From NCBI GenBank assembly GCA_937899415.1, contig CALBPI010000069.1:4280-68279 (forward strand): 64,000 bases of DNA, in the 5' to 3' direction. The notes below the pieces were generated by a model. It ran no database searches and was not told the DNA's origin. It was given only the letters and a program-made list of their open reading frames with translations. Below are positions 7,618-28,795 of the stretch, piece by piece (within the stretch, counting starts at the first letter, position 1; each line of letters begins with the position of its first letter). A program made the translations under genes and the position numbers. This stretch comes from an uncultured Gammaproteobacteria bacterium (GTDB taxonomy: Bacteria; Pseudomonadota; Gammaproteobacteria; Steroidobacterales; Woeseiaceae).

Positions 7618-8123
7618 GCCATCACCGCCGCGCGGCAACCGCCGCGCTGGCGCTGCTTTTGGCCTGCAGTGCGGTTGCACACCAGGCGCGGGAAGCGGTC
7701 ACGCGCGTGTTGTTCAACAACCGCACGGGCAACATCGAGGTGATGCACCGCTTTCTTGTGCACGACGCCGAGCACGCCGTGCGCGACATCGTGGGCGCTG
7801 ATGCTGACATCCTGAGTTCAAAGGCCACGCGCGACCAATTTGCGGCCTACGTCAGCAAACGCTTCAAGATGCGGGACCAGGACGACAACTGGCTTGAGCT
7901 CACACCCGTCGGGCACGAGATCGAGGGACAATTTCTCTGGGTCTACGCCGAGACGCCGATACCCGAGAACCTCGAGGCGCTCGCGATGAGCCACAACGCA
8001 CTGCGCGACATCTGGCCGGACCAGGTCAACCTCGTGACCGTAGAGCGTGACGGCGAATCTCAGTCCGCCTTGTTTGCCGGCGGCACGCCTTCAGTAACGA
8101 TCGACTTCGACTCGGGGTCTTAG
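7602..8123 (+). CDS. Small secreted protein, DUF6702-like
   Basis: A signal peptide (AALALLLACSAVA) is followed by HQAREAVTRVLFNNRTGNIEVMHRFLVHDAEHAV. This resembles the DUF6702 pattern found next to M1 peptidases in Bacteroidetes. It overlaps the M1 gene stop. An alternative GTG start is at 7614. Confidence 0.55.
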   Translation: MRRRVSHHRRAATAALALLLACSAVAHQAREAVTRVLFNNRTGNIEVMHRFLVHDAEHAVRDIVGADADILSSKATRDQFAAYVSKRFKMRDQDDNWLELTPVGHEIEGQFLWVYAETPIPENLEALAMSHNALRDIWPDQVNLVTVERDGESQSALFAGGTPSVTIDFDSGS

Positions 8124-9226
8124 GGCCCCGCCTCGATGGTCATCACGAGCGGCAGGTGGTCCGACACACCGCGGCGACGCTCGAGATCGAAGCGCCGCAC
8201 CGTGCCGTCTTCATTGAGCTGATCGCGGTAGCCGTTCGCGAGGTAAACACCGCCCGTGCGGATGCGCCAGGATTCCTGCGCCGCGGGTGCCGGTGAGAAC
8301 AGCACCATGTCCAGAAACGACCAGCTCTTGCCGGTGCGCCAGTAGTTGGTGCCGATGCAGCCGTCGCAATCGACTTCGTGCGCCACGCGCCAGTAAGGCC
8401 GCACACGATCATCCATGATGCTGGTGTCGGTCATCTCACGGTTAGGCGTGTTGAAGTCGCCCGCGGCAAACACCACGTGGGCATCGGGCACATTGGCCCG
8501 CAGCTCGTTGAGATGGTCGTAAGCCAGCTCGCGCATCTCGATGGGATGGAACGGTGCCGGGAAGTGTACGGCAAAGCCTGTGAGCAGCCTGCCATCGGGT
8601 AACTCGAACGTGGCTTCGAGCACACCGCGCGTGTCATCCGCCCGGTCGGGGAACGCATCCATGTTGAACGGGTGCAACACGGGCATACCGCGAATCGGCA
8701 GCCGGGACAAGAACGCCACATCGATCCCGCGCAGGTCGCGCCCCTCGAGAAGCACGAGCTCGCGGTAACCCGCCGCGCCCAGGTAGTCGCGCGTCAGGCG
8801 CTTTAAGATGTTGACGTTCTCGACTTCCTGCAACGCGATGATGTCGGGCCCGCGCCCGTCGTTCACCTGCAGGATCGCCGCCGCCACCTGTTCAAGCTTG
8901 AATTCGAGCGCTTCATCGCTCCAGTCGAGCTCGAGGCATTCGCTGCGCCAACGGGGCACCTCGATGGGCTCGCAGAGTGCCTTGTGCGCCGCCGTCTGCT
9001 TCATCGCAACCGGCAGGTAGGCGTGGTCGTCCTTGCCCGGGTCGTCCGTATTGTCGAATAAGTTCTCGACGTTGAAGGTCATGATGGTGACCGTTGGCGC
9101 CTCCGCCGCGGTCGCCGGCTGCGTGCTATTGATGCCGCAGGCGTTCAACAACAACGCACACAAGAGTGGCGCGGCACGCCACAGGCGCGCGCCCGTTTGT
9201 ATTGCAGTTACCCGCCGTTCACCCAT
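8120..9226 (-). CDS. Endonuclease/exonuclease/phosphatase (EEP) family lipoprotein
   Basis: Motifs are TIMTFNVENLFD, PDIIALQEVEN, AAGDFNTP and GVSDHLPLVM. I chose the internal start MGERR...LLCALLLNACG (lipobox) at 9226, 16 nt after the upstream gene's stop. The track ORF extends to 9376. Confidence 0.8.
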   Translation of the reverse strand: MGERRVTAIQTGARLWRAAPLLCALLLNACGINSTQPATAAEAPTVTIMTFNVENLFDNTDDPGKDDHAYLPVAMKQTAAHKALCEPIEVPRWRSECLELDWSDEALEFKLEQVAAAILQVNDGRGPDIIALQEVENVNILKRLTRDYLGAAGYRELVLLEGRDLRGIDVAFLSRLPIRGMPVLHPFNMDAFPDRADDTRGVLEATFELPDGRLLTGFAVHFPAPFHPIEMRELAYDHLNELRANVPDAHVVFAAGDFNTPNREMTDTSIMDDRVRPYWRVAHEVDCDGCIGTNYWRTGKSWSFLDMVLFSPAPAAQESWRIRTGGVYLANGYRDQLNEDGTVRRFDLERRRGVSDHLPLVMTIEAGP

Positions 9227-9242
9227 ACGCCTCACCTGCTGT

Positions 9243-11012
9243 TCATTCCGGCTCCAGTAACCAGTACCCGGCGTCGATGCCCGTCGGCACGTAGTTATCT
9301 GCTGAGGGCTCGAGAATGCGCGCCTCACGAAACAGTATCGCAAGGTCACGCAACATGAGGCGACTGTTTGCGACATAGGAGTGCCCCTTGGTCGCCTGGC
9401 TCACATCGACCGTCTGCATGGGCGGTGCCACCATCGGCCTCGGGTGTGTTTCGCCGGCACGCTGGTAGTTTTCCTCGTCGCCACCCTGCAGCGCACGCGA
9501 CAGCAACAGCGCCGAATCGTGAGCCGACGCATAGAGCGTCACACCGTCGGTGATACGGTCCAGCGCTTCGATCTTCTGCGCCAGCAGGTCCCGCTTGATA
9601 TCTGGCGCGGCGAATACCAGCTGGCCAAACGCATTGTCCGGCAAACCGTCCGCCGACAGTTTCTCGACAGCCTGTGACAGCGCCCGCGTGCCCATGCTGT
9701 GCGCGATCAGGTGGATGCGTGTTGCGCCCGATTCCCGGTGCAGCTCCTCAAGGAACTGGCGCAGGTGCAGCACGCTGGTTTCGACATTCGCGGCATCGGT
9801 CAGGTAGTCAAGGACGGCGCCCTGCGACGGCCAGCTGAAGAATACCGGCGCACCGGGGAACTGCATGTCGTGCGCAATCTGCGCCGTTCGAAATGCTGCG
9901 TCCTGGAACGTGTTGTGGAAGCCGTGCACGAAAACGAACGCCTGCTTCTCCGGGTCCCGCGCCAGTGTCTCGGAGAGTTCGGCATAGAATGTCTCGTCGT
10001 CAGGCGGCGTCACTGCGGCAAGCTGGAAGTGCTTGGTAGGGTCCACCGCGAATTCGAGCCGGATGAGACTGGGCCGGTTAAGCTCGCCCGCGCGCCGCTT
10101 GGGCGGAATCGAGACACTGACCCAGCCCCGTTCATAGGGCGTGCCGTATGCATCCGCCTCGCGAATCTCATTACCAAACTTGACCTTGAGGATGGCGTCG
10201 TCCTGGCGCATCAGGAGCGACTTCTGCAGCCCCAGGCCGCCGAGCACCACGATGGCAAGCCCGCCGACCACCCGCACGACCAGGCCCAGGCGACTTTGGT
10301 GTTCTTCCTTGATATAGCGGCGGATGGCGCGCGTGAGCAACGCGGTAAGCACGAGTGCCACGGCAAAGCCCAGGAAGGGCTTCAGGTAGTCCCCGAAGGT
10401 CCGCGACAGGCGCACCCGGTTGGTCGCGAAATACACGCGCTTGAGAATGGGAGTGTCGTCAGCAAGGTCCTCGAGTTCGACCTCGGCGGCCATGACCTCG
10501 GTCGTTGTCGCTTGGTCGGCACGCACGATGGCGCCCGCCGGCGCCAGGTTGGGTAGCATATCGACCTGCCGGCGCGCCTCCTCCAACTCGCGCGCCAGCA
10601 CGGCATTCTGCTCCGCCAGCTGCCGCACTCTGTTAACGCTGGCTTCGCTGGCGGCGCGGGCTTCAGCAACACGTATCTCGGCTTCCCGCGCTTCCTGCAT
10701 CGCGCGCGCCTCCACGTCGCGCAATGCTTCGGCCAGTGCCGCAGCGCGTGCCTCGGCTGCCGCCGCAGCGGCGCGCGCCTCGGCCAGGGCGGCCTCAGCA
10801 TCGGCCAGTTCCTGCTCCAGCTGCGCAATCCGCGCCTCGCGCGCCGCGAGCGTGGTCTCGTGATCTGCGACGCGCTGCTCGAGCCGATCGACCTGCGTGT
10901 CCTGACGTTGCGTCACGCCATCTTCGGCACTGTCGCGGGCACAAGCTGTCAGCAGCGCGACCAGTACGACCGCAACACCCCTATTCATGGCGGTGGAACT
11001 GTGCATCTTCAT
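9243..11012 (-). CDS. DUF900-family alpha/beta hydrolase with an N-terminal lipobox, a coiled coil and two TM helices
   Basis: The N-terminus is MKMHSSTAMNRGVAVVLVALLTAC (lipobox). An Ala/Glu/Arg-rich heptad region of ~150 aa follows, then two hydrophobic helices (FLGFAVALVLTALL and VVGGLAIVVLGGLGL). The DUF900 core is FVFVHGFHNTFQDAAFRTAQIAHD...PVFFSWPSQG...IHLIAHSMGTRAL, where GxSxG takes the form HSMG. Its start overlaps the upstream stop (ATGA). Confidence 0.8.
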   Translation of the reverse strand: MKMHSSTAMNRGVAVVLVALLTACARDSAEDGVTQRQDTQVDRLEQRVADHETTLAAREARIAQLEQELADAEAALAEARAAAAAAEARAAALAEALRDVEARAMQEAREAEIRVAEARAASEASVNRVRQLAEQNAVLARELEEARRQVDMLPNLAPAGAIVRADQATTTEVMAAEVELEDLADDTPILKRVYFATNRVRLSRTFGDYLKPFLGFAVALVLTALLTRAIRRYIKEEHQSRLGLVVRVVGGLAIVVLGGLGLQKSLLMRQDDAILKVKFGNEIREADAYGTPYERGWVSVSIPPKRRAGELNRPSLIRLEFAVDPTKHFQLAAVTPPDDETFYAELSETLARDPEKQAFVFVHGFHNTFQDAAFRTAQIAHDMQFPGAPVFFSWPSQGAVLDYLTDAANVETSVLHLRQFLEELHRESGATRIHLIAHSMGTRALSQAVEKLSADGLPDNAFGQLVFAAPDIKRDLLAQKIEALDRITDGVTLYASAHDSALLLSRALQGGDEENYQRAGETHPRPMVAPPMQTVDVSQATKGHSYVANSRLMLRDLAILFREARILEPSADNYVPTGIDAGYWLLEPE

Positions 11013-14000
11013 TTCTTGAGACTCCTGGCGAAGGCCTCGGCAATCTGCTTCGGCAGCTTGCCGGCCTGCATCAGATTGACCGCAATACTCAAGACACGGA
11101 CCCGTCCCTTGTAGGCGATTTCCACACGCAACGCCACATCGTCAGGCAGCAGGGGGCGCACCGACTTCTCGAAGCGCACGGACCGGATGTTGGGGATACC
11201 GGAATCAATGCCCTCGTCCACGCTGCGACGGACATCGGCCAACACCTGTTGGTTCTTAGGCATGCTCTTGAGCACGCGCTCTGCCGAAAGCCGTTGCTTC
11301 GTCGCCGCTGGCAATTCGTCGATCGCCTCTATGGCCTGCTTCACTAGCTTTACCTGCGTCTTGCTCAGCACGGGTTTGTGCCGGTATAGCAGGATGCCGG
11401 GGAAGCCCTTGAACTCGCCCAGGCGTATTTCTGCAACGTTCTCGCGGATCAGCGCCTTGAGCGCGCGCTTGAGGTTGGTGCGGTAGCGTCTGTCTATTTT
11501 GGCCTTCGCCGCATTTTGCACCGCCGTGAGTTTGTCGATCCAGGGCTCAGCCGCCTCGCGCGCTTCCTTGGGCGCAAACGGCTTGGCCCCCGCGACAATA
11601 AGCTTCCTGCCGACGTGCTTGCCCGCCCAGCTGTCCATCATGGCGTGCACAGAGCGTTTGCTGGTCTTGCTGGCAATGCGCCGCTTCACCTCGGCGCAGA
11701 CTGGCGGAATGTTGCGCCGAACGCCCCGCAGACTCGCCTCGAAACTGTCCTTTTTCTTGATGGCCGAGATCAGCATGTTGTAGCCGTCGGAAACCTCGTT
11801 GCCCACGGCCTTGTTGGCGACGGACTTGAGCCCCTTACGGAAGGACGCGCTGAAGCCCTTGGGCAGCTCGAGCTCGAAGCCAGCGTTGAACAGTGAGTTT
11901 CGCTTGCCCGGCAAAGACAGAAACATCGTCGCACTGAGATCGCCAACCTTGAGCTCCGCTGGCTTGAACATCAGGCCATCGGCGCTCGCCACCGCGCTGG
12001 TACGCACCTCGATCCGGTCGCGGCCTGGCGTATCCCAGACCACGGTGCCGGAGATGGCCAGACCACCGGCGTCGATCTTGAGAGTGCCCTGCAACCAGAA
12101 GTCGTCAGCCAACACGAGGCGGATGCGGGCCTCGAACAACTCACCCGGCACCACCTTGAGCGAGCCGCCCAGCGCAAAGGTCTTGCGGGCGATCTGCAAG
12201 GCGATTTCGCCGGCGACGTTGACGGCGACCTTGTCGGAGTCGTCCCGCACCCGGCGCGTCTTGACCAGACCGTTGATACGAACCGCCAACAGCCCTTCCG
12301 GGCCGATTTGCAATGTCTGACGAACCGCAAGCTGGCGGTTGCCGGGCCCCGTCAGGGCCATACCGAACTGGGTCTTGCTGCGAATGAGGTTGACCCGGCC
12401 CACCTTGATCGCCGCCTCGCCCATCATGAGGACGAGATAGCCCTTGTCGTATGGTGCGCCGCCCATGTTGACCGGCGTGCAGCCGATCATCGCGACGGGG
12501 TCGGCCTTGGCCAGCTTGCGCATCGCCGACTTGCTCTTCATGACCACGTTGCGAAACTCCGCATCGGTGGTCACGCAACACACGGCACGAAAGCTCAGCG
12601 GACCGAATGCCATATCAATGTCGCTGATCCGAGGCCACTTCGTGGCACGCCCCTCTCGATAGGACAACGGCACCGTTCGGATCAGCCAGCCCGCGTTGCC
12701 CGCCTTGATACCGTCGATGCCATGCGCCAGCGTGTCGGCCATCTCGAGTGGCGGCAGTGCGCGATCTATGCCGATGCGCGCGCCGCCCAGATAATTCGGC
12801 AACGACAAGGTCGCCGGACCCAGCGTAAAGGGCAACGCCAGGCTGTCGGGCAAATTGTCGTCCTGATGAAGGAAGACCTGGTCATCCGTAAAAAACCGCA
12901 CCAGCGAGACGACCAGACGCACCCAGTCGCCCAGCGAGGGCTCCGGGTCCGGAAACGCCGCCTGCAACTGCATGCCGAGCCCCAGGAAATTGCGATAGCG
13001 CCAACCCAGCTCGTCGTAGAACAAGGGCATGGGCACGGGAGCGGCCATCGGCACCAGCGCGACGAGCTTGCGCAAGGTCACTCGATTGGTGATGGCCTCG
13101 CCCTTGCCACTCAGCAGCGCGAACACTAGGTTGACGATATCGAGCCGGTCGATCCAGCCGTCGAAGCGCACCACACCCAAGGCGCCGCCGCTGGAGACGC
13201 CAAAGCCCACCTCATAAAGCGTAACGCCCATGAGAGCCGGCAGGGGTGGTACTCCCGCGACGGTCGGCATGATGACGCGGATTGGTTTGTCGTCCTCGAC
13301 ACCAACGGTCACATGGGCGCCGCCACCGGGCTCGATCGCAAGGTCAAAGCGGAAATTGGTTGGAATGTGTAGCTGCAGATAGTCCTCGAAATCCGCAGGC
13401 AAATTGTCGATACCCTGCGCCAGCGCGTCAGCCAGTTTCTCGAACGCGGCGGTGACCGCCTTCGATGGGGTGCCGAGCATATCGAGCAATTGGGGCACGA
13501 CCTCGGGCGAGGCGAGGTCCAGCTCACGCAGTGGAATGCAATCCGGCATCTTGTTTAGTAGGGCATCCGGCAGGCCACATTTGCGCGCGAGCCAGCGAAC
13601 GGGCGTCAGGGGTAACGAAAGACCATCGCTTGAGAGCACGCCGCCGCTTGCCCGCCAGCGCCCCCCCTTGAAGTCGAAGGTGAGTTCGGGCACCAGAAAA
13701 CTCAGCGTGCCGATGCCCTCGAATTGATGCCACTCGGTCCACAGCGACCCGTCGGGTAAGGTGCGCAGCGCAATGGCTCGAAACGGCGAGGTCTTGGGCT
13801 GTACGCGAACGCCGCCGTCGACGACCAGCGCAAGGTCCAGACGCTCGACAAAAACATCGGCACCGCCCAGCAGACGGTTGAGTCGGTCCAGCGCGTCTAC
13901 GCGCAGATCGGCACCGAGCTGCCAGGTATTGCCCGCGCCGGAACGGCGCCGTATGCCGATGGCGCGCACCGACACATCGGGTGCCGGTATCGCGTCCGAG

Positions 14001-16066
14001 CCGATATCGAGCGCCAGGCTTTGCAAACCGTCCGATTCGAGCTGCAGTGCGATCTCATGCGCCCCGAGCTGCAGTGTGGCGCGCACTTCGGTCTCGGGCA
14101 GCAACACGCTGACAGGAAACGGGACGCCTTCAAAGTGTACTCGTGCGTCGGCCGTGACCTGCCACGGCGCCTCGCGGCCGCTGCGCGCGAAACCAACCGA
14201 TAGCAGGGACACGACCGTAGCCGCGGCCTCAGGCTGATCCGGATCGATGGACAGCGGTAACCGCACGGCCTGATCGCCGGCATCCGGGTTGGGTGTCAGC
14301 TGAATACCATTGGCCGACAGCGACACCTGCGCCTGGTAAGTCATCAGGTCAGGCAACTCGAGCGCGCCCAGCGCCTGCAGTGCCGTACTGCGCTGCTTGC
14401 CCACGCGGCTGACCACCATCGCGACCTGCTCAAGCCACAGCGTTGCCACATCGGGCACTAACGCCACCTGAACCGGCGTCGTGACAGACAGCCGCAATGC
14501 CGAGCCCTGGCCTGATTGTTCATAGCTCGCGCGCAAAGCGACCGGGCGGTCGAATAGCGAAGCCTCAAGGTCGCCAGCAACCACCCACGCGCCGTCGGCG
14601 CCGAGATTGAAACTGAGCTCAACACCGCCCAGCACGAGTGCCGTATCGATCGCGATGGGCCCGTCAGCGCTTACGGCGAGTTCGGCGATGGGCGGCTTAC
14701 CGGCGCGCAGCGCAAGCTGCAGGCGGCAGGTCAGCGCCGTCGGTGAGCCCGTGTCGAAAAGATCTGCGTGAACCGTGACCGAAGACTGCAGGCGCAACAC
14801 GCCCTGGCTGCCCGAGATCTCGAGCGCCGTAGAACCGAACGCAATTTCCGGTAGCTCAGGAGGTGCGGTCACATCAAAACGCGCCAATAGCGCCACCAGG
14901 GTCGTCGGCCGCAGGCTGCCTGCCAACTCGGTATCGCGCCCGATGGCGCCCCGCACGGCCACACGCTCGCCGCCGACTACGGTCGTCGCGTAAAGCCGTG
15001 CACCGGGATTGTCCGCCGACAGCTCGAGGTCGAGCTGCAGGCCCTGCAATGTGGCGTTGGTGCCCGGAATCGGCCAATCGCCTTCGAGCGTACTCATCGC
15101 CTGCAGACGCTTGCCGGGCCAGTCGGCGTCAACGCTAAGTTGCCGAATAGACAACGCCGGCAATAGGTCGGGCGGCGCAGACCCGGCAAGACCACGATAG
15201 AGCGACGCCAATGACACGCCCGACTCGTTGTCCAGCGCGCCGCGGAAGCGGAACTGCGGCAGCTCGCCAGACAGCGCGATGGCAGTGCCCCCAATCCTTA
15301 GCGTGGCGCTGGCACCCATCGAGACGCGGCGCCGCGCCGCATCGGTGAGGCTCTGGCCCTGCAGCGATACCGCGAACGACGCCAGCGTGACGCCATCGAA
15401 TGGCGTTGCAACCTCGGGCACGCGCAAACCCAGCTCGACGGCGGCGGGCACGAAGGTACCGGCCCGCAGCGCCAAAGCCAGCGTGGTCAGCTCAATCTCA
15501 CCGCGCAGCTGATCGACCGGCAGCTCAGCCAGCAAGCTGCCCAACCCACTGGCCTCGAGCAAGCCGGACAATGCGGCAAGGTCGAACGTCTGGTTTTCGA
15601 CCCAAACGTCGATGGTGTCGGTGCTGGATGCGATGCGCAGCGTATGTTGCTGGCCGCGCACCGCAATGGTGACCACCAGCGTCGGCTCGGCCATGAGCAA
15701 CGCCTCGCCGGTGCCGCCCATCGCAACATGCAGTTGGGCATCAATGAGCCGCGCCTGTTCGAGAAACGGCAGCGCTACGGCCGATGACGGCAAAGCGCAA
15801 TCGAGATGCCCATGCCAGGTGTCGTCTGAGCCCTCAAGCGTCAGCGACGCCGACTGCTCAGGCAAACCGAAGGGACGCACGGGTCCGCGCGCAGCCACGA
15901 TGGCGCCATCGGCCTCGGCCATTGTGAAGGCCCAGGTCTCCACACCGGGTACCCGGTCCTGCAGCAGTGCCAGATTGTCGAGCGCCACGTCGTCGAGCCA
16001 CGCGTCACCGCGACGCAGGTTGGCTGCCACTGTGTCCATCCAGACTGTTGGGCGTCGCGCGCTCAT
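11009..16066 (-). CDS. 1685-aa hypothetical protein with no recognisable domain (orphan giant)
   Basis: This is a single uninterrupted ORF in GC3-rich host-like coding sequence, with ATGA overlaps to both neighbours. I see no signal peptide, TM helix or catalytic motif. The first ~1350 aa are Ala/Leu/Gly/Val-rich and beta-like. The last ~330 aa are Lys/Arg-rich and helical. Confidence 0.8.
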   Translation of the reverse strand: MSARRPTVWMDTVAANLRRGDAWLDDVALDNLALLQDRVPGVETWAFTMAEADGAIVAARGPVRPFGLPEQSASLTLEGSDDTWHGHLDCALPSSAVALPFLEQARLIDAQLHVAMGGTGEALLMAEPTLVVTIAVRGQQHTLRIASSTDTIDVWVENQTFDLAALSGLLEASGLGSLLAELPVDQLRGEIELTTLALALRAGTFVPAAVELGLRVPEVATPFDGVTLASFAVSLQGQSLTDAARRRVSMGASATLRIGGTAIALSGELPQFRFRGALDNESGVSLASLYRGLAGSAPPDLLPALSIRQLSVDADWPGKRLQAMSTLEGDWPIPGTNATLQGLQLDLELSADNPGARLYATTVVGGERVAVRGAIGRDTELAGSLRPTTLVALLARFDVTAPPELPEIAFGSTALEISGSQGVLRLQSSVTVHADLFDTGSPTALTCRLQLALRAGKPPIAELAVSADGPIAIDTALVLGGVELSFNLGADGAWVVAGDLEASLFDRPVALRASYEQSGQGSALRLSVTTPVQVALVPDVATLWLEQVAMVVSRVGKQRSTALQALGALELPDLMTYQAQVSLSANGIQLTPNPDAGDQAVRLPLSIDPDQPEAAATVVSLLSVGFARSGREAPWQVTADARVHFEGVPFPVSVLLPETEVRATLQLGAHEIALQLESDGLQSLALDIGSDAIPAPDVSVRAIGIRRRSGAGNTWQLGADLRVDALDRLNRLLGGADVFVERLDLALVVDGGVRVQPKTSPFRAIALRTLPDGSLWTEWHQFEGIGTLSFLVPELTFDFKGGRWRASGGVLSSDGLSLPLTPVRWLARKCGLPDALLNKMPDCIPLRELDLASPEVVPQLLDMLGTPSKAVTAAFEKLADALAQGIDNLPADFEDYLQLHIPTNFRFDLAIEPGGGAHVTVGVEDDKPIRVIMPTVAGVPPLPALMGVTLYEVGFGVSSGGALGVVRFDGWIDRLDIVNLVFALLSGKGEAITNRVTLRKLVALVPMAAPVPMPLFYDELGWRYRNFLGLGMQLQAAFPDPEPSLGDWVRLVVSLVRFFTDDQVFLHQDDNLPDSLALPFTLGPATLSLPNYLGGARIGIDRALPPLEMADTLAHGIDGIKAGNAGWLIRTVPLSYREGRATKWPRISDIDMAFGPLSFRAVCCVTTDAEFRNVVMKSKSAMRKLAKADPVAMIGCTPVNMGGAPYDKGYLVLMMGEAAIKVGRVNLIRSKTQFGMALTGPGNRQLAVRQTLQIGPEGLLAVRINGLVKTRRVRDDSDKVAVNVAGEIALQIARKTFALGGSLKVVPGELFEARIRLVLADDFWLQGTLKIDAGGLAISGTVVWDTPGRDRIEVRTSAVASADGLMFKPAELKVGDLSATMFLSLPGKRNSLFNAGFELELPKGFSASFRKGLKSVANKAVGNEVSDGYNMLISAIKKKDSFEASLRGVRRNIPPVCAEVKRRIASKTSKRSVHAMMDSWAGKHVGRKLIVAGAKPFAPKEAREAAEPWIDKLTAVQNAAKAKIDRRYRTNLKRALKALIRENVAEIRLGEFKGFPGILLYRHKPVLSKTQVKLVKQAIEAIDELPAATKQRLSAERVLKSMPKNQQVLADVRRSVDEGIDSGIPNIRSVRFEKSVRPLLPDDVALRVEIAYKGRVRVLSIAVNLMQAGKLPKQIAEAFARSLKK

Positions 16067-18066
16067 GCGTCTAGGTTCAGCAGCAGCTGCAGCGCAGACA
16101 GCTTGTCTTCGGTATTGGCTAACCCGGCAATGGCGAGCACCGCCTCATCACGCATCTCGATGATGCGCGCGTCGTTGAGGTCATTGAGTTGTTGGCGCAC
16201 GTCCTCGATTGTTGCGCGATCGAAATAGGTCGCAGACACCACGCGACCGCGCGCGTTGTAGAGCGCTCTCGATTCCAGGCGATGATAGTAGGCCGGTATG
16301 TCGTGGTGGCTGAGATCGTCATAGTCATGCTGGTCCGTATGCAGCTGATCCGCGGGATGGGCCGCATTGCCCGCGCCAAGGGCAAGCTTTGCGGGAGGAT
16401 GCAGGAACGCATCCACGCGATGCCACGCGGGCCGGTCCGGCGTGTTGGCTTGGCCTTCGGGATTGCGCGTGCTGTGAGCGGAGGCCGTGATAATGCCGAG
16501 CGCACGCATATAGCCCGCACTCGGCACGGGTACCGCGCGCGCCATGCAGTCACCCATGGCGTCGATCCATGTCGTAAATTCCGGCTGATTGTTTGCAATC
16601 AGGGTCAGCGTGTGTTGCATGGCCGCCCCGATGCGCGCAGTCTGCTCGCGCGGCAGAACGCGGCGCCAGCCCGAACCGTGCAGTTCGACCACCCGGTTGC
16701 TTGCCGGCACACTCCTGATCGAGTCTACGGAATCGAGATACATGCGGGAGGTACCATCGAGCTGGATGCCAATCGCCTGCTGCTTGATGAGCCAGCCTGT
16801 CAGCCCACCCGTCTCCTGTTTGTCCGCGTCATTCTCACCGCCGGCACCACCCGGTGCCGATTTGTCCGATACCGCCGCCGTACCGGGCAGTGACGTGATG
16901 GGGCCGGAGAAACTGACTTCCAGATCAATGGGTACCGGCAGCTTGTCGTGCGCAATGATGTTTTCGAGGTGCAAGTCAGACCACGAAAACACGCGTGCAA
17001 TTGCCAGCCACGCGCCCCAGGTACGATAGAACACGTCGCTCTGCTCCGTGGTGGTCAGCCAGTCGGAAGCCGCGAAATCCGCGTCACTGACCGGCCCCGC
17101 TGGCAAGCCGTCAATGCCCGCCTCGGGCGCATGGCGGAGAAACTCAATGTAGCCGTAGGAGTTGCCAACCGGCAATTGGTTGTCGTTGACCTCAAGCCCG
17201 CTACCCGGGTGCCTGGGCAAGATCCGGTAGGTCGGTAGTTCCGGCACGTTCGGGTTGAGGCCGGCCTGCAGGCGCAACGCGTTGATCAGTTCGGCCAAAC
17301 TCTGCGGCGGCGCGTCATCCCCGTAGGGGTTGTAGGCATCGGTGCGACCGCAGAAGCGGTAGTCCATCTCGATGTCGGAGGGCTTGTAGACGAGTTTGTG
17401 TAGCCCCTCGTTGGCGCCGGCCACTTGCAGCGAGAAGAACAGGACCGCGCGGCCACGTTTGTGGGTATCGCCACCCGAGGGGGTGATCCTGACCAGCGCC
17501 GTGATGCCCGCGTCGTCGAAGAAGACGTTGCTGATGGTCTCGCGGTCGCCTGCCAGACGCTGAACGGCCAGCGCCATGCTGCTCCTGAACTGCTCGCTGA
17601 CGCGCTCCAACAGGACGCGAGTCGTCGCGTGGTACTCGAAAAACACATCGATGCCGGGCCGTCTGGTCTCGGTATCGACAATCAGCTCGGGGATGATGAG
17701 CCATTTGAAGTAGCGGTCGTAGATTCTGTCGGCCTGCTCGGGCTTGTCATCAGAAATGATGGCGTCGTAGGTCCGGCGCAGCTTGTTGATCTCGCTGATC
17801 TGCGGGGGCGGGCGCCAACGGTGACGCTTTCGCTCCAGATACTCGCGCAGCTCGTAGAGATCTCTGGCAACGGCTGCGGCCGTCAGCCGGTCCAGCAACT
17901 CGATAAGCGGCCGGACCAGCTGCGGGTCTTCAAGCGCTTGCACGGCGAACGGGTTTTGCGTCGCCACCTCATTTAGGCGTGTGATCACGGGAACGACGAA
18001 GCGCTCGTAGATCCGCCAGCGCTTCTTGCAGGGCGCCAGGCTTTTTAGCTGACTTTTATTGAGCAC
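16063..18066 (-). CDS. Stand-alone LanM-type dehydratase/kinase-like domain protein (DUF4135), no LanC domain
   Basis: The motifs PSGGDTHKRGRAVLFF...HKLVYKPSDIEMDYRF and SDLHLENIIAHDKLPVPIDLEVSF (DxHxxN followed by a metal-binding D) match the class II lanthipeptide synthetase N-terminal domain. The DIPAYY motif lies further downstream. The protein is 667 aa and ends without any LanC-like GxxHG, WCxG or CHG motif. The GTG start at 18066 is uncertain. Confidence 0.75.
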   Translation of the reverse strand: MLNKSQLKSLAPCKKRWRIYERFVVPVITRLNEVATQNPFAVQALEDPQLVRPLIELLDRLTAAAVARDLYELREYLERKRHRWRPPPQISEINKLRRTYDAIISDDKPEQADRIYDRYFKWLIIPELIVDTETRRPGIDVFFEYHATTRVLLERVSEQFRSSMALAVQRLAGDRETISNVFFDDAGITALVRITPSGGDTHKRGRAVLFFSLQVAGANEGLHKLVYKPSDIEMDYRFCGRTDAYNPYGDDAPPQSLAELINALRLQAGLNPNVPELPTYRILPRHPGSGLEVNDNQLPVGNSYGYIEFLRHAPEAGIDGLPAGPVSDADFAASDWLTTTEQSDVFYRTWGAWLAIARVFSWSDLHLENIIAHDKLPVPIDLEVSFSGPITSLPGTAAVSDKSAPGGAGGENDADKQETGGLTGWLIKQQAIGIQLDGTSRMYLDSVDSIRSVPASNRVVELHGSGWRRVLPREQTARIGAAMQHTLTLIANNQPEFTTWIDAMGDCMARAVPVPSAGYMRALGIITASAHSTRNPEGQANTPDRPAWHRVDAFLHPPAKLALGAGNAAHPADQLHTDQHDYDDLSHHDIPAYYHRLESRALYNARGRVVSATYFDRATIEDVRQQLNDLNDARIIEMRDEAVLAIAGLANTEDKLSALQLLLNLDA

Positions 18067-18104: not shown

Positions 18105-21100
18105 CTACTCCTGCCACACGGGTACGCGCCCCGGCGTGTGGGGCGAGCCCATGCGTTCCAGAGTTTCCTCGAGCGCCGTGAGGTCACGCTCGATGCCACG
18201 CAAGTCCGTCAGCGCCGAGCGGAAGGCGCTGGCCGCCATTGCGTAGGAGGACTCGTACATCTCGGGCACATCGGAACGCACATTGAGCAGCAGCCCGTAG
18301 ACGGCACCCGCACGCCGGGAGATCGACCAAGGCGTGGCCTCGTTGCGCGACGCCACCGTACGGTCGCCATTCAGCGCGACGACGAGGTCATCGAGGCGCG
18401 TCTTGATCTGACGCAGACGTTGCTCGTGCGACTCGTCGGCCGCCGGCGTATCCGTCAGCGCCGCCTTGAGGTGCGTGATGCGCGTGTTGAGCTCGCCCGT
18501 TAGCGCGCTGGCACCGGCCACCGCGCGGTAGAGCTCCCCGGCTTTGCGCTGGAACGCGGTAACGGCGCTGAGGTCCAGGCTCGTTTCCTTGCCCTGCGGC
18601 ATCGACTTGACCGTGAACGTCTTCGGCCCTGCAACCTCCTCAAGCGCGCCGTTCTGGCGAACCGCCAGGCTCACGGTGTACTCGCCGGGCGCTGCCAGCG
18701 GACCCTGCGGCGGTGAGGCCCAGGGCACCGAGACCGGTGTCGACAAGTCGACGGGATCGGTCGGCGGGTAGCGCAGGTCCCAGGCTGTGCGATGCACACC
18801 GGCGCCCGTTTTGCCGGCAACGCGACGCACGACATTACCGTCTGTGTCGCGAACGATCAGCATCACGGCCGGGTCTTCCTCGCGATCCTCGGCGCGCAGC
18901 GCCTCCCAGGAGGGGTACGGCGTACCGCCACCTTCCTTCTCGATCTCAATCTCCGCCTTGCGGCGCGTCTTGCTGGCGGACTCCAGGCCTTTCTCGAGGC
19001 GGTACGTAAACACGGCGCCGAACGGCGGGTTGTCGGCGTTGTAGTGCGTCGCACCGAAGAAGCCCTTCACGCCGTAACCGATGTTGTCACCGACGACGTA
19101 AGACCAGGCATCACGCACGTCGAACAGATGCTGTGCTTCGAGATCGCCGGCTGCCGTGCGCAGCGGTGTGTAGTCGTCGAGGATGTAGATGCCGCGCCCA
19201 AAGGTGCCGACCACGAGATCGTTCTCTCGTCGCTGGATTTCGATGTCGCGCACAGCGATTGTCGGGAAGTTACCCTTGAGCTGGTGCCAGGCATCACCAC
19301 CGTCCTGCGAAAAGAACACACCGAACTCGGTGCCGACGAACAACAGATCGGCGTCGACATGGTCCTGCACGATCGTGTGCGCCGAACCCCACTCGGGCAG
19401 GTTGTTCGAGATCAGCGACCAGCTGCGCCCCCGGTTCTCGGTCTTGAGCACGTAAGGCTTGTAGTCGCCACGCTTGTGGTTGTCGATGGTGGCGTAGGCG
19501 ACATCGGGGTCGTGCAGCGAAGCGACGACATCTTCGATGAGCGACATGTCGGGCACGCCGCGGAACGAATCGACGCGACGCCAGGTTTCGCCACCGTCTT
19601 CGGTGACGTTCATGACGCCATCATCGGTGCCCACGTAAATCAGGCCCTCGCTGAGCTCGCTCTCCGAAAGCGCAATCGCTGCGCCATAGATCGACGTAGA
19701 GTTGTTCTTGGCGATCGTGTCCACGCTCCAGACGCGGCCCATGACCTCAAGCGCATTGCGGTCGAGCTGTCGCGTCAGATCCGGGCTCACGGCTCGCCAG
19801 CTGTTGCCGCGGTCATCCGAGCGGAAGAGCTTTTCCGCAGCGTAGTAAATCCGCTTGCTGTTGTGCGGGCTGACGATCAGCGGCGTGTTCCAGTTCCACT
19901 TGTAGGCGTTTTCGCCATCGGCCGGGTGCGGCGCGATGAACACGCGCTCGCCACTGGTTCTGTCGTAGCGGGCGAGGCCACCGTACTGGTACTGCGTGTA
20001 GATGATATTCGGGTCTTCGGGGTCGAACTGCGGCTCATAGCCGTCGCCACCGAGGATCAGCGTCCAGTCGGCATTCGTGATGCCGTGGCGCATCGTCGTG
20101 CGCGAGGGACCGCAGAGCGAGTTGTTGTCCTGCGTACCGCCACAGACGTTGTAGAACGGCTCCGAGTAGTCGGGCTGTATGCGGTAGAACTGGGCAATAG
20201 GCAGGTTCGCGATCCAGCGCCAGTTCGCACCGTCGTCGTAGGTGTCGTAAATGCCACCGTCACCTCCGATCACGAGATGCGACGGCTCGTCGGGGTCAAT
20301 CCAGAGCGCGTGGTCATCCACGTGACGGTGGTCGCCGCCGTAGCGTGACCACGTTGAACCGCCGTCGACCGACACGTGCGTAAACGTATCGACCGAGAAC
20401 ACGCGGTCGGGATTCGTCGGATCCACAACCAGCTCGTTGTAGTACTGCGGGCTCGAGGTCATGTGGCCCGAGCGCTTATCCCAGGTCAGGCCGAAGTCAT
20501 CGGAGCGGTAGATGCCCTGCTCGTCTGACTTGGCCTCAATGATCGCGTAGACGCGGTCCGCATCACCCGGTGCGCCCGCAAGACCGATGCGACCCATGTT
20601 GTCCTTGGGCAGGCCCGATGAGATTTCGGTCCAGGTCTCACCGCCATCTGCGCTGCGGTGGATGCCGCTGCCGGGTCCGCCGTTGATGAGCGTCCAGACA
20701 TGGCGGCGGCGCTGGTAGCTCGAGGCCACGATGCGGCTGCTGTCGCGCGGGTCGACGACGAACTCGTTGATGCCCGTGTCGGCATCGACAGAGAGGATCT
20801 GCGTCCAGTTCTCGCCACCGTCCGTGGTCTTGTAAAGGCCGCGGTCGCCGCCCGAATTCCAGAGCGGGCCCTGGGCCGCGACGAGCACGGTGTCGCCGTC
20901 CTCGGGGTCGATCCAGATCTGGCTGATATGGCCCGAGTTCTTGAGCCCAACGTTGGACCAGCTCGCGCCGCCATCAAGCGACTTGTAGACGCCGTCGCCG
21001 TAACCCACGCTGCGCTGCGCGTTGTTCTCGCCCGAGCCGACCCACACCGTGTTGGGGTTGGAAGGATCCAGCTCAACGACGCCCAGCGCGTAGCTGCCTT

Positions 21101-21353
21101 CGCCGTCAAACAACGGCTTCCAGGTCGTGCCGTTGTTCTCTGTCTTGAACAAACCGCCCGAGGCGACCGACGCGTAGTACACGCTCTTGTTGTCGGGGTG
21201 GAACGCAAAGTCCGAGATGCGCCCTGAGATTACTGCAGGACCCATCGTGCGCAGCGGCAGGCTGGCCAGCGGGTGTTTGTCGTCAGCCAGCGCCGGCGTC
21301 GGAGTCGCTGTCACAAGCGTGCAGGCGAGCAGCACAGAGATCAAACGAGTCAT
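18105..21353 (-). CDS. Sortilin/VPS10-like BNR (Asp-box) repeat protein, secreted
   Basis: It carries repeated Asp-box motifs: FKTENNGTTW, YKSLDGGASW, YKTTDGGENW, HRSADGGETW, YRSDDFGLTW and SVDGGSTW. I chose the internal start MTRLISVLLACTLVTATPTPALA (signal peptide) at 21353, which has an AAGGA RBS. The track ORF extends to 21512. Confidence 0.85.
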   Translation of the reverse strand: MTRLISVLLACTLVTATPTPALADDKHPLASLPLRTMGPAVISGRISDFAFHPDNKSVYYASVASGGLFKTENNGTTWKPLFDGEGSYALGVVELDPSNPNTVWVGSGENNAQRSVGYGDGVYKSLDGGASWSNVGLKNSGHISQIWIDPEDGDTVLVAAQGPLWNSGGDRGLYKTTDGGENWTQILSVDADTGINEFVVDPRDSSRIVASSYQRRRHVWTLINGGPGSGIHRSADGGETWTEISSGLPKDNMGRIGLAGAPGDADRVYAIIEAKSDEQGIYRSDDFGLTWDKRSGHMTSSPQYYNELVVDPTNPDRVFSVDTFTHVSVDGGSTWSRYGGDHRHVDDHALWIDPDEPSHLVIGGDGGIYDTYDDGANWRWIANLPIAQFYRIQPDYSEPFYNVCGGTQDNNSLCGPSRTTMRHGITNADWTLILGGDGYEPQFDPEDPNIIYTQYQYGGLARYDRTSGERVFIAPHPADGENAYKWNWNTPLIVSPHNSKRIYYAAEKLFRSDDRGNSWRAVSPDLTRQLDRNALEVMGRVWSVDTIAKNNSTSIYGAAIALSESELSEGLIYVGTDDGVMNVTEDGGETWRRVDSFRGVPDMSLIEDVVASLHDPDVAYATIDNHKRGDYKPYVLKTENRGRSWSLISNNLPEWGSAHTIVQDHVDADLLFVGTEFGVFFSQDGGDAWHQLKGNFPTIAVRDIEIQRRENDLVVGTFGRGIYILDDYTPLRTAAGDLEAQHLFDVRDAWSYVVGDNIGYGVKGFFGATHYNADNPPFGAVFTYRLEKGLESASKTRRKAEIEIEKEGGGTPYPSWEALRAEDREEDPAVMLIVRDTDGNVVRRVAGKTGAGVHRTAWDLRYPPTDPVDLSTPVSVPWASPPQGPLAAPGEYTVSLAVRQNGALEEVAGPKTFTVKSMPQGKETSLDLSAVTAFQRKAGELYRAVAGASALTGELNTRITHLKAALTDTPAADESHEQRLRQIKTRLDDLVVALNGDRTVASRNEATPWSISRRAGAVYGLLLNVRSDVPEMYESSYAMAASAFRSALTDLRGIERDLTALEETLERMGSPHTPGRVPVWQE

Positions 21354-21382
21354 GGTGTGTCCTTTATCTTTGTTTTCAGAGC

Positions 21383-22312
21383 TTAGGCCTGGACTGCACG
21401 CCACGCCGCGAGAATCTCGCCAGGTGCCGCACTCCAGACCTTGCCGGATTGCGTGATGTATTCGAGTACGCGTTCGAGCGCACGGATTCGGTGTGGTTGC
21501 CCCAGCATCCAAGGGTGAATATTGAGCGCCAGCAGGCGTCCGCCACCCGTGGCTTCGGCTTCGCCGATGAGGAAGTCGCAGGCGTCCTCAACCTGTTCAG
21601 CCCATTCGAGCTCGGCGTGGCCGTTGTCCGTGATGACGAAGCGGTCTTCGAGCTCTGTCGACAACGGCATCGCCGTAAGCTCGCCCGCGGCGGTGCGGAA
21701 CGGAAACGGCAGGTCGTCGTTGATCCAGTCGCACATGAATTCAACGCCATGCTCCACGAGCAACGCGGGTGTGTTCTCGCTCTGGCTCTTGGCCGGGCTC
21801 AGCCAGCCTTTGATCGACTGTCCGGACGCGCCGCGCAGCACGTCGAGCGACCGCGCGATACGCTTGCGCTCTTCGGCCGCGTCCAAACCACCGTAATGCA
21901 GGCTGTCCATGTCCCAGCCGTGACAGAGCAGCTCATGGCCACGATCGACCACACGCTGCAGCAAGTAGGGCGTGCGTTCGGCAAGCCGGGCACTCATGGC
22001 GACGCTGGCGGTAACGCCGAACGCGTCGAGCGCCTTGAAGATCCGAAAAACACCGACTCGGTTGCCGTAGTCGCGCAGCGTGAAGTGACGCAGGTCCGGG
22101 TAGGCCGTGACCATGCCGCCCGGCGGCGGGAACGGTTTGCCTTTCTGGTCGAGCGGGAAGAACTGCAACGCGACGTTCACCCAGAGCGCCAGCGGCTTGT
22201 TGCCGGGCCAGGTGACGGGCGCGCGATCGGCGAGCATCGACCAGTCGTAGTGGTCGTGGTCCATACCGTAGCCACGGCGCGCGTACTTGAGGTAGTCGCC
22301 GTCGAGACTCAT
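21383..22312 (-). CDS. Polysaccharide deacetylase-family protein (PuuE/CE4-like)
   Basis: It resembles the PuuE-type allantoinase/deacetylase fold (YGNRVGVFRIFKALDAFGV, ELLCHGWDM, AEERKRI). It is a paralog of the upstream gene, with an ATGA overlap. Confidence 0.75.
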   Translation of the reverse strand: MSLDGDYLKYARRGYGMDHDHYDWSMLADRAPVTWPGNKPLALWVNVALQFFPLDQKGKPFPPPGGMVTAYPDLRHFTLRDYGNRVGVFRIFKALDAFGVTASVAMSARLAERTPYLLQRVVDRGHELLCHGWDMDSLHYGGLDAAEERKRIARSLDVLRGASGQSIKGWLSPAKSQSENTPALLVEHGVEFMCDWINDDLPFPFRTAAGELTAMPLSTELEDRFVITDNGHAELEWAEQVEDACDFLIGEAEATGGGRLLALNIHPWMLGQPHRIRALERVLEYITQSGKVWSAAPGEILAAWRAVQA

Positions 22313-23226
22313 GACGTCGCGCCCCGCGCCTCAATGTCGGCAACGGCCGCATCGTAGTGATTCGCAATCCAGTGCTCGGCGATCTCGCGCCCCGTGGTCA
22401 CCCAGACATCGCTGTGGCCCGTGATGTACTCGAGCGCCTCCTCGAAGGCACGCAGCCGGTGCGGGTGCGACACCTGATAGGCATGCAACGGAATGCACAT
22501 GACGACGGGGTTGTCGGCGCCCTCGGCGTAGAGCCGGTCGAAGTTGGCCTTGAGCATCTCGCCGTAACGGCGTGGCTCAATCTTGTTGGCCACATAGACG
22601 ATCGTGTCGTTCATCTCCAGCGAGTACGGCACCGAGATGAACTTCTCACCCGAACGCACGCGAACCGGCGTCGGTTGATCATCGTGAAACAAGTCGCAGG
22701 TGTAGATACCGCCGGCTTCTGCGAACAGGTCGAGCGTGTGCTCGGTGTGCGTCAGCGCGGGCGCCAGGTAGCCGGCACAAGGCTTGCCGGTGTGCTCAAG
22801 GATCGTGGCCATGGCGGCCTCGATGACCTCACGCTCCTGCGCCTCGCTCATGCCGTAGACGTAGCGCGTGTTGTAGATGCCGTGGCTGAAGAATTCCCAG
22901 TCACGATCGCGACACATGGCGATGATCTCGGGGTGGTGGTCGCAAAGCGCCGTCGACAGTGAGATCGAACCGCGCACACCGTACTTGTCGAGCAGGTTCA
23001 TGAGGCGCATGTGGCCGACGCGGTTACCGTAGTCGCGTGTGGCGTAGCCGTGCACGTCGGGCACGGGTTTGGGCCAGGCTTTGCGGTGCGGGTTTACAGC
23101 CGGGTCGAGCTCGTAGAACTCGATGTTGGGGGCGACCCAGAACGCGACGCGCGCGCCACCGGGCCAGCTGATCTTCGGCCGATCCTCATAGGGCCAGTAG
23201 TGATACAGGCCTGGGTCTGAGCGCAT
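22309..23226 (-). CDS. Polysaccharide deacetylase-family protein (PuuE/CE4-like)
   Basis: Motifs YGNRVGHMRLMNLLDKYGV, EFFSHGIYN and SEAQEREVI are collinear with PuuE-like enzymes and with the downstream paralog. Confidence 0.75.
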   Translation of the reverse strand: MRSDPGLYHYWPYEDRPKISWPGGARVAFWVAPNIEFYELDPAVNPHRKAWPKPVPDVHGYATRDYGNRVGHMRLMNLLDKYGVRGSISLSTALCDHHPEIIAMCRDRDWEFFSHGIYNTRYVYGMSEAQEREVIEAAMATILEHTGKPCAGYLAPALTHTEHTLDLFAEAGGIYTCDLFHDDQPTPVRVRSGEKFISVPYSLEMNDTIVYVANKIEPRRYGEMLKANFDRLYAEGADNPVVMCIPLHAYQVSHPHRLRAFEEALEYITGHSDVWVTTGREIAEHWIANHYDAAVADIEARGATS

Positions 23227-23261
23227 AGACGTCCCCCAAAAATGCGCGCAACGTGAACGGG

Positions 23262-23966
23262 TTAGAACGGGCTGCCGCGAGCCTCGCGAATCGGTTGGCA
23301 GCCCGGGTGCTGTTTCAACCAGGCCTCAACAGCGGCGATGTCCTCGACATCCGCGTACTTGAGCATCATGTCACAGAGGTTCGCGAAGTGCGGGATCTCG
23401 TGTTTGTCGGCCACGCACTCCTCGGGAATGATCGTGCGGTAGCCGTGTGACAGCGAGGCGACGCAGGACGCGCGCACGCAGCCAGAGGTGCTGCCGCCCG
23501 TCAGGATCACGGTGTCCACCTTGTGCCAGACGAGCAGCGACGGGATCAGCGTGTCGTGAAACACGCTGGCCATGCGTTTGTTGATGACGGCGTCGCGGGC
23601 GCGGTCGATCTCGAGCCGCGGGTCGAGCTCGGACCGCTCCGAGTCTTCGCGAATATTCTGCAACGAATCCGGCGTGTTGGTGCGCGTACCCCAGGCGCCC
23701 GCGTCGTCGGCGCTGTCCATGTAGGCCACGTAGGTCCAGATAACCGGCATGTTTTTGGACCGCGCCAGCGCCGACAGCCGGTTGATGTAGTCCAGCTGGT
23801 TCGGGTCGGTCTGGTAGGCCGTCTTGAAGGTCTCGGTGTCGGTGTAGGCACGCTGCAGATCGATATTGATGATCGCGGCCTTCTCACCAAAGCCGAACTT
23901 GGCCCGGTTCGGGTTGCGCTTGATCTCGGCCCAGTACTCACGGGGCGTCAGGTCAGAGGTTTGCAT
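23262..23966 (-). CDS. Isochorismatase-family cysteine hydrolase
   Basis: AAIINIDLQRAY, VDTVILTGGSTSGCVRAS (catalytic Cys context) and the ~230-aa size are typical of isochorismatase and N-carbamoylsarcosine amidase-like hydrolases. Confidence 0.8.
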   Translation of the reverse strand: MQTSDLTPREYWAEIKRNPNRAKFGFGEKAAIINIDLQRAYTDTETFKTAYQTDPNQLDYINRLSALARSKNMPVIWTYVAYMDSADDAGAWGTRTNTPDSLQNIREDSERSELDPRLEIDRARDAVINKRMASVFHDTLIPSLLVWHKVDTVILTGGSTSGCVRASCVASLSHGYRTIIPEECVADKHEIPHFANLCDMMLKYADVEDIAAVEAWLKQHPGCQPIREARGSPF

Positions 23967-28685: not shown

Positions 28686-28795
28686 TCCAAGGCCCTGTTC
28701 CGTTGTTCTTCTATCGGGCGGGCACCCGGCCCTATCCTGCCCGAAAGGCCGGCCCGTTTCCGGGCCGGCCACGCGTTACCGCATAGACACAAGTG

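Follow-up and report, generated by a model that had tools for sequence, protein, structure and literature searches.

A stand-alone LanM-type dehydratase gene and the gene of a giant protein form a conserved pair in bacteria and archaea

A stretch of 64,000 nucleotides (nt) from the genome of an uncultured gammaproteobacterium of the Woeseiaceae (assembly GCA_937899415.1, contig CALBPI010000069.1), referred to here as the window, carries on its minus strand a gene for a stand-alone DUF4135 protein, which belongs to the dehydratase domain family of LanM lanthipeptide synthetases, and directly behind it the gene of a giant protein of 1,685 amino acids (aa). These two genes are the conserved unit of the locus. 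A first-pass annotation of the same sequence had proposed a module of four genes, in which a DUF900 hydrolase and a protein of the endonuclease/exonuclease/phosphatase (EEP) superfamily were also included, and had held that a lack of synteny in other genomes would speak against it. In 32 non-redundant loci a DUF4135 gene lies directly upstream of, and on the same strand as, the gene of a giant (1,400-3,300 aa) that shares one N-terminal module (the N-module), and among loci found from the DUF4135 side the giant is adjacent in 30 of the 36 that could be assessed, with gaps between the two genes of -53 to +65 nt. Across more than 30 loci, the giant is the only constant neighbour of the enzyme. 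Homologs of the DUF900 and EEP proteins occur in 0 of about 45 related loci; the four-gene module is therefore not syntenic, and the DUF4135-giant pair is all of it that survives the neighbourhood survey.

The related loci, numbered with the prefix L, were obtained from exact-sequence look-ups, from a search with an alignment of 18 enzymes through the GTDB species, each represented by one genome (32 loci), and from a metagenome scan with an alignment of the giants (8 loci). They were processed by calling of open reading frames (ORFs), BLAST clustering and labelling with hidden Markov models (HMMs). The pair is found in Acidobacteriota, Bacteroidota (several Chitinophaga), Chlorobiaceae and Actinomycetota (Streptomyces, Streptosporangiaceae), as well as in Alpha-, Delta- and Gammaproteobacteria (Ferrimonas) and in archaea of the Methanotrichaceae. 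In a metagenome-assembled genome of one such archaeon (L024:9662-21367), the gene of a giant with the N-module, longer than 3,276 aa, begins directly behind a DUF4135 gene (gap 0 nt), and the pairing thus spans domains of life.

The association is not symmetrical. Giants stand without a DUF4135 gene in L047, L048, L049, L052, L054, L055, L056 and L057, whereas enzymes that lack a giant partner are rare. Accordingly, the enzyme depends on the giant, but the giant does not depend on the enzyme; most simply, the enzyme would be an accessory that acts on or through the giant. Some of the giants without the enzyme have other neighbours. A protein resembling metallo-beta-lactamases (MBL-like) is encoded upstream of the giant of L049. 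On the short contig of L056 (860-10686), a type II-like giant of 2,742 aa with Laminin_G_3 arrays has upstream of it a 522-aa protein with the eCIS_core domain (PF13699, formerly DUF4157). In L055 (4138-13330), the giant P0035 (2,093 aa) is preceded at 13 nt by a 616-aa protein, which may be nucleotidyltransferase-like judging by its GGTA...SDWD motif, and is followed after 17 nt by a gene for a caspase-like Peptidase_C14 protein; this arrangement looks like a conflict system.

Direct reading of the sequence bore out the layout described at first pass, namely four packed minus-strand genes with an ATGA overlap at two junctions and a 16-nt gap at the third. The ORF list of the window gives 8120-9376, 9243-11012, 11009-16066 and 16063-18066. 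The start of the EEP gene is not 9376 but the ATG at 9226, which lies upstream of the lipobox and downstream of a Shine-Dalgarno-like AGGTGAGG; with the DUF900 stop codon at 9245-9243, the spacer is 16 nt (9227-9242). A GGAG stands 10 nt ahead of the DUF900 ATG. Overlaps of 4 nt are common in the window, the two polysaccharide deacetylase genes likewise sharing 22309-22312, and by themselves are thus ordinary operon features. The junction between the DUF4135 and giant genes recurs at -4 nt in 7/9 loci with giants of the window's type (type II), which makes it a conserved feature, and it is tight in nearly all other loci. Co-translation with fixed stoichiometry had been read from the overlaps. 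Translational coupling is indeed likely; the fixed stoichiometry is dropped, as an overlap cannot show it.

On the 5' side, only 38 nt separate the start of the DUF4135 gene from the end of a BNR/Sortilin-like gene on the same strand, so that the transcript may extend beyond 18066. The four genes, including DUF900 and EEP, may be co-transcribed here as part of such a unit. A scan for promoters and terminators was uninformative, as its counts were at the level of shuffled sequence. The spacings from the BNR/Sortilin-like gene through the EEP gene (38, -4, -4 and 16 nt) leave no space for the gene of a precursor peptide.

The assignment of the enzyme to DUF4135 held in the HMM search, where PF13575 was its sole Pfam match (Table 1). 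The NCBIfam model of full LanM proteins, TIGR03897, gave 111.4 bits against a cut-off of 304, and the LanC cyclase domain PF05147 was not found by Pfam in the enzyme or in any of 18 close homologs of 420-956 aa. Together with the missing intergenic space, this agrees with the first-pass statement that cyclase and precursor peptide are lacking. A profile of the 18 stand-alone homologs matches the lanthipeptide synthetase CylM (5DZT) at 4.8e-29. Residue conservation (Table 1) was counted in an alignment of 37 stand-alone enzymes and one LanM outgroup, which agrees at every listed position. We take CylM D252, H254, K274, D347, H349, N352 and D364 to serve phosphorylation, and R506 and T512, whose mutants in CylM are known to accumulate phospho-forms, to serve elimination. 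Equivalents of all of them are kept, and therefore the enzyme looks competent, as far as its residues tell, for both Ser/Thr phosphorylation and phosphate elimination. It is not a LanM by membership, and very likely works like the dehydratase half of one. Hydropathy scanning and the translation give no transmembrane (TM) helix and no signal peptide for this protein.

In a rough neighbour-joining tree, the enzymes cluster largely by the type of their partner giant, and all lie far from the LanM outgroup. Tandem DUF4135 paralogs are present upstream of DUF6603 giants in L007, L008, L018 and L022. The upstream copy of L008 has lost D200, H202, K203 and the Thr equivalent to CylM T512, and on account of these losses is probably a pseudo-enzyme. 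The 918-aa DUF4135 protein of L042 (756-3512; also L043), partner of a type II giant, has at its C-terminus a domain of isochorismatase-like type, which scores 28 bits (cut-off 27). A link between this protein and the isochorismatase gene of the window, 5 kb upstream of the enzyme gene, was considered and dropped, since the two have no specific similarity.

Table 1. Features of the DUF4135-giant locus and of its two downstream genes; positions are those of the window
Feature	Position	Strand	Evidence
Stand-alone LanM-type dehydratase (kinase + phosphate-lyase) domain protein, 667 aa, without cyclase domain	16063..18066	-	PF13575, 3.7e-30
D200, H202 (CylM D252, H254)			36/37 each
K228 (CylM K274)			37/37
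D364, H366, N369 (CylM D347, H349, N352)			37/37 each
D381 (CylM D364)			36/37
R510 (CylM R506)			37/37
S516 (CylM T512)			Thr in 35, Ser in the window protein; Thr/Ser 36/37
ATGA stop/start overlap, DUF4135 gene/giant gene	16063..16066	-	Sequence reading; -4 overlap also in L004, L010, L025, L040, L041, L045
Giant partner, 1685 aa, cytoplasmically made; type II member of an unannotated giant family	11009..16066	-	Homologs; no library match
N-module of giant, aa 35-434; only part in common with DUF6603 (type I) giants	14765..15964	-	hhalign, BLASTP
Core of type II giants, aa 745-1245; segment most widely conserved	12332..13834	-	Module map
C-terminal tail of giant, aa 1421-1685; basic, helical, K+R 21%, small alpha/beta domain at end	11012..11806	-	Composition, AlphaFold
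ATGA overlap, giant gene/DUF900 gene	11009..11012	-	Sequence reading
DUF900 alpha/beta-hydrolase lipoprotein, 589 aa; lipobox, coiled coil, two TM helices, hydrolase domain	9243..11012	-	PF05990, 1.1e-43
EEP-superfamily predicted lipoprotein, 368 aa	8120..9226	-	PF19580, 3e-16; PF03372, 2e-13

The partner of the enzyme was first taken for an orphan protein, and this view has to be given up. When 1.84 billion representatives were searched exhaustively by HMMER with aa 486-1685 of the giant, 348 clusters (formed at 50% identity) matched with E <= 1e-3, and 143 with E <= 1e-30. Among the cluster matches listed, the greater part are 1,300-4,059 aa long, the remainder being shorter partial sequences. 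A word-indexed search with the giant alone or with a four-sequence profile returned the giant itself and one weak DUF6603 protein, and no more. Type II giants are found in the window, L004, L010, L025, L040-L049 and L058; full-length homologs with 24-38% identity stand beside DUF4135 genes in L004, L010, L025, L042, L045 and L058. In the nearest relatives the giants share 59-66% identity with it, the loci L040 and L041 being truncated. The giant has no match in Pfam (0 families at E <= 0.1), NCBIfam, PADLOC or PHROGs, and sequence and profile searches of the PDB gave nothing for the type II giant alignment or for the DUF6603 giants. No TM helix or signal peptide was detected in it by hydropathy scan, and 0/122 full-length relatives have a signal peptide. 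The absence of signal peptide, TM helix and recognisable library domain had already been reported at first pass, correctly.

Most loci contain a second type of cassette (type I), in which the DUF4135 gene is followed, in this order, by the genes of a giant with the DUF6603 domain (PF20248; 1e-136 by Pfam in a Chitinophaga giant), of a protein of about 720 aa (family F4) and of one of about 900-1,480 aa (F3); the cassettes comprise four to five genes. An alternative order is F3-F5-DUF4135-giant-F4, where F5 has a phage tail-collar or fibre-like domain at its end. These three families travel with DUF4135 and DUF6603, for example in L018:16378-21369 and L001:2798-9741. For F3 and F4, searches of Pfam, NCBIfam, PHROGs and PDB gave no match, and the literature search found nothing on DUF6603. 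Transposases adjoin L001 and L002. The type I cassettes resemble the window locus in their upstream stand-alone DUF4135 enzyme, in a homologous N-module and in having no N-terminal signal-like sequence. They differ from it in that the window giant lacks the DUF6603 domain (about 500 aa) and the window has no F3, F4 or F5 gene.

A module map of 150 representatives describes the type II family as a repeat-like N-module, a segment named b, a core of about 500 aa, and a variable C-terminus. The N-module (about 400-550 aa) is the one region common to all partner giants. By hhalign, aa 35-434 of the window giant align, profile against profile, with 39-591 of type I at a probability of 98.9% and an E of 1e-17, and BLASTP of the giant to the DUF6603 protein of L001 gives 1e-9. 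The roughly 1,250 aa beyond the N-module are unlike the DUF6603 region, as aa 435-1685 and a core profile of 139 sequences both stay below 1% in hhalign, and the type II core has no homology to DUF6603, F3, F4 or F5. The strongest polar conservation of the core is a near-invariant W1163-C1164-x-x-T1167-x-x-E1170 motif (WCVTTExEF-like; DNA 12557-12580), which could be a catalytic, structural or modification site. A C-terminal segment named d and the basic helical tail are common to about 45 representatives, and Pfam places Laminin_G_3 or pentaxin arrays at the C-terminal position in 7/7 distant representatives scanned.

An AlphaFold2 model of aa 486-1685, made from a 36-sequence alignment, reached a predicted local distance difference test score (pLDDT) of 80.5 and a predicted template modelling score (pTM) of 0.61, values which argue that the giant is a real folded protein. 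Long antiparallel beta-hairpins form three blocks in it; its other parts are a region of mixed alpha/beta structure that holds the W-C-x-x-T-x-x-E motif, a long helical bundle, and a small terminal alpha/beta domain. Foldseek comparison of the model with the PDB and BFVD gave nothing significant, only generic large-beta-sheet proteins at template modelling scores of 0.1 or less. The idea that giants paired with an enzyme have a special leader-like N-terminus was rejected, because paired and solo N-termini are alike.

We propose that the pair is a functional cassette, in which the enzyme would phosphorylate or dehydrate its giant partner and so change it covalently or affect its maturation. Such a modification of the giant had been among the ideas of the first-pass annotation, and of the mechanisms considered it is the best supported in our view. 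This proposal appears plausible to us, though it falls a little short of being probable. The DUF4135 protein would bind the giant during or soon after its synthesis; that both proteins are made at the same place and time is favoured by the stop/start overlap, which is conserved. The enzyme would then phosphorylate Ser/Thr residues of the giant with ATP, and the phosphate would be eliminated to leave dehydroalanine or dehydrobutyrine on the giant, that is, the chemistry of lanthipeptides performed on a protein and not on a leader-bearing peptide. Such electrophilic residues could cross-link, mature or arm the giant. The giant, and most likely its N-module, would be the substrate or the docking platform, as the N-module is common to both giant types and thus a likely interface with the enzyme. 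What the giant does is suggested by its relatives, which carry lectin-like Laminin_G arrays or adjoin tail-fibre-like and eCIS-core proteins; these associations suggest that it forms a target-binding or released assembly.

Several observations weigh against this proposal. No Ser, Thr or Cys is invariant in the N-module across the families, which leaves no obvious fixed modification site there, and neither a cyclase nor a conserved nucleophile partner for a cross-link was found. The N-module is also present in giants without the enzyme, and P0022, a close homolog of the giant (38% identity), stands alone, so modification cannot be essential to the giant fold. Structural comparison gave only the generic matches in the PDB and BFVD described above, and an AlphaFold prediction of aa 1-800 without an alignment was unusable (pLDDT 36). 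Additionally, DUF900 is tightly coupled to the giant through ATGA and a Shine-Dalgarno sequence, and the hydrolases may for this reason matter functionally in this organism.

The nearest known enzymes offer another explanation. LanM proteins such as CylM (5DZT) and LicM2 (6ST5) belong to the same PF13575 fold family, and their kinase and elimination residues have equivalents in the window enzyme. However, they possess a C-terminal LanC domain, a LanA precursor gene and LanT, all missing in the case of the window enzyme, whose invariant partner exceeds 1,400 aa. As the characterised DUF4135 domains all act on ribosomal peptides, the enzyme might belong to a cryptic pathway for a peptide that is made on the ribosome and modified after translation (RiPP); it would dehydrate a small unannotated or distant precursor, or a peptide derived from the giant, while the giant would be unrelated or would act as scaffold or immunity protein. 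The LanMbC enzyme CcaM of the dehydrazole RiPPs provides a precedent, since this divergent DUF4135 protein only dehydrates, forms no lanthionine ring and needs no leader peptide (PMC10676384). It differs in its substrate, an azole-containing peptide of 30 residues, and in its synteny with YcaO (PMC10676384), neither of which is present at the window locus. The lack of intergenic space for a peptide gene, of a LanC domain and YcaO partner, and of a LanT/C39-type transporter among the scanned neighbouring ORFs all count against a RiPP pathway, as do the giant being the sole constant neighbour across more than 30 loci and the position of the stand-alone enzymes in a clade well apart from the LanM outgroup. 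We regard this explanation as very improbable.

The DUF900 and EEP proteins are lineage-specific add-ons outside the conserved system. Their domain assignments and both lipoboxes, as given at first pass, were supported by Pfam, the translations and hydropathy. The DUF900 protein reaches 149.9 bits with PF05990 (cut-off 20.5) and has an AHSMG nucleophile motif, the lipobox LLTAC and TM helices at 212-230 and 242-262. The EEP protein reaches 59.8 bits (cut-off 27) and 51 bits (cut-off 24.5) in its two Pfam matches and has the lipobox LLNAC and a C-terminal SDH motif (...GVSDHLPLV...). With these motifs, both are predicted to be intact extracytoplasmic hydrolases. PDB searches found nothing for either protein, and homologs of the DUF900 protein on plasmids have miscellaneous contexts. 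Related giants are followed by miscellaneous genes or by genes of the opposite strand, which include those for an aldolase, LysE, a caspase-like peptidase, and a GGDEF and a Gp49-like protein.

If the four genes did nevertheless work together, they might form an envelope or lipid system such as the first-pass annotation had in mind, in which DUF4135 would act on a lipid, the giant would bind or transfer it, and DUF900 and EEP would process it in the envelope. The tight coupling of all four genes is in line with this idea, and so are the weak matches of the DUF900 protein to Lipase_2, LCAT and DUF676. The LanM kinase fold is lipid-kinase-like. The top matches of the giant in Foldseek, none significant, were ApoB100, vitellogenin and LptD, all of them lipid-binding or lipid-transporting beta-sheet proteins; their probabilities are, however, at most 0.12 at the low template modelling scores given above. 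The four-gene set is in no other related locus, the enzyme keeps the peptide-specific elimination residues R510 and S/T516, and the giant, like its 122 full-length relatives, has no signal peptide, nor has it a membrane anchor. The EEP protein, for its part, is closest to the nuclease-type profile PF19580 and shows a trace match to ExeM/NucH. A lipid system is thus an improbable account of the locus.

A conflict or toxin system with exchangeable parts would draw on the same neighbours. The giant would be its sensor, scaffold or delivery component, the upstream enzyme would regulate or arm it, and the downstream hydrolases would be effectors. The patchy distribution over bacterial phyla and archaea fits such a system, and the partners do vary. 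Upstream, eCIS_core (PF13699; L056), the 616-aa protein with its GG[ST]...DxD-like motif (L055) or the MBL-like protein (L049) takes the place of the enzyme, and downstream there is Peptidase_C14 in L055 as against DUF900 and EEP in the window. The Laminin_G_3 arrays on distant giants, the tail-fibre-like partner in type I loci and the transposases beside L001 and L002 point the same way. Yet every alternative partner occurs once only, and an effector-like gene after the giant is missing in most related loci. The compartments do not fit either, since DUF900 and EEP are predicted exported lipoproteins, and the giant and the enzyme are cytoplasmic. PADLOC-DB v2 gave no match for EEP, the giant or DUF4135, and nothing beyond coiled-coil noise for DUF900 (about 16 bits, E >= 4e-4). 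Relatives of the giant and of the enzyme are absent from IMG/VR viral contigs, the giant is not on plasmids, and the window consists of ordinary chromosomal genes of uniform GC content without the hallmarks of an island. We consider a conflict system unlikely.

Genes for the sheath, tube or baseplate of phage tails, of extracellular contractile injection systems (eCIS) or of type VI secretion systems were absent from Pfam scans of 23 larger window ORFs, and there is no PHROG for the giant; the eCIS_core (L056) and tail-fibre-like (L001) proteins adjoin distant relatives only. The lanM-family gene CA_C0082 of Clostridium acetobutylicum resembles the window enzyme in lying outside any lanthipeptide cluster and in having been proposed to serve a non-antibiotic cellular role; in the part of that account available to us, no giant partner is mentioned (PMC10301443). 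Literature searches retrieved DUF4135/PF13575 in the contexts of RiPPs or kinase classification only. The first-pass annotation knew of no described system with this gene set, and this remained so, with nothing from PADLOC, NCBIfam, PHROGs or PDB and no literature on DUF6603. The DUF4135-giant gene pair is thus undescribed, without precedent in these databases or in the literature searched.

Enzymes are known that install dehydro-amino acids or phosphates on whole proteins, namely the phosphothreonine lyases OspF/SpvC and the atypical CotH kinases. They are analogies only, as their folds are unrelated, none of them has a giant for a partner, and no single polypeptide among them unites kinase with lyase.

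The surroundings of the locus resemble an ordinary Gram-negative chromosome of about 63% GC without compositional anomaly, with genes for AcnB, an E1 dehydrogenase, a TonB-dependent receptor, M1, M3 and M28 peptidases and CobW. A metagenome scaffold, ERZ23487833, is near-identical. The BNR/Sortilin-like gene (18105-21512, minus strand) encodes a BNR/Sortilin-Vps10-like protein of the F510_1955 glycosyl-hydrolase-like type (9.5e-42). Ahead of it, at 21383-23966 on the same strand, are the two overlapping polysaccharide deacetylase genes and the isochorismatase gene (23262-23966). None of the BNR, deacetylase and isochorismatase genes recurs in the related loci. Further upstream, the gene at 25878-28772 (minus strand) encodes a Ser/Thr protein kinase of 964 aa, which carries a long TPR array. 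A related kinase-TPR protein (family F9) lies near the DUF4135 gene of L035, which may be coincidence; an extracytoplasmic function (ECF) sigma gene (L039:263-838) is recorded beside the kinase. An ORF of 2,690 aa at 55124-63196 (minus strand) contains FG-GAP, thrombospondin type 3, Big_9/cadherin-like and NHL repeats, and is probably a large surface adhesin.

The LanM dehydratase domain itself is known; what would be new is LanM-type chemistry with a giant protein as its partner. Thus far, DUF4135 domains have been studied as RiPP enzymes only. Genome-mining tools, antiSMASH and BAGEL among them, call lanthipeptide clusters with PF13575, and stand-alone DUF4135-giant loci are consequently mis-called or ignored. 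The two hydrolases DUF900 and EEP, predicted to be exported, are best left out of the conserved system. The pair names a candidate for the first protein substrate of LanM chemistry. Additionally, an enzyme with a predictable mass signature, +80 Da for pSer/pThr and -18 Da for Dha/Dhb, offers a handle on two large, uncharacterised families of giants, the DUF6603 proteins and the type II family of 348 clusters. In a wider sense, the enzymes may represent a widespread cyclase-less LanM-type clade of bacteria and archaea that has departed from peptide natural products and puts phospho- or dehydro-amino acids on dedicated giant beta-sheet proteins. It is possible, though we hold it doubtful, that in this way the clade cross-links, matures or arms a hitherto unrecognised class of large proteins without signal peptides, some of which carry lectin-like arrays.

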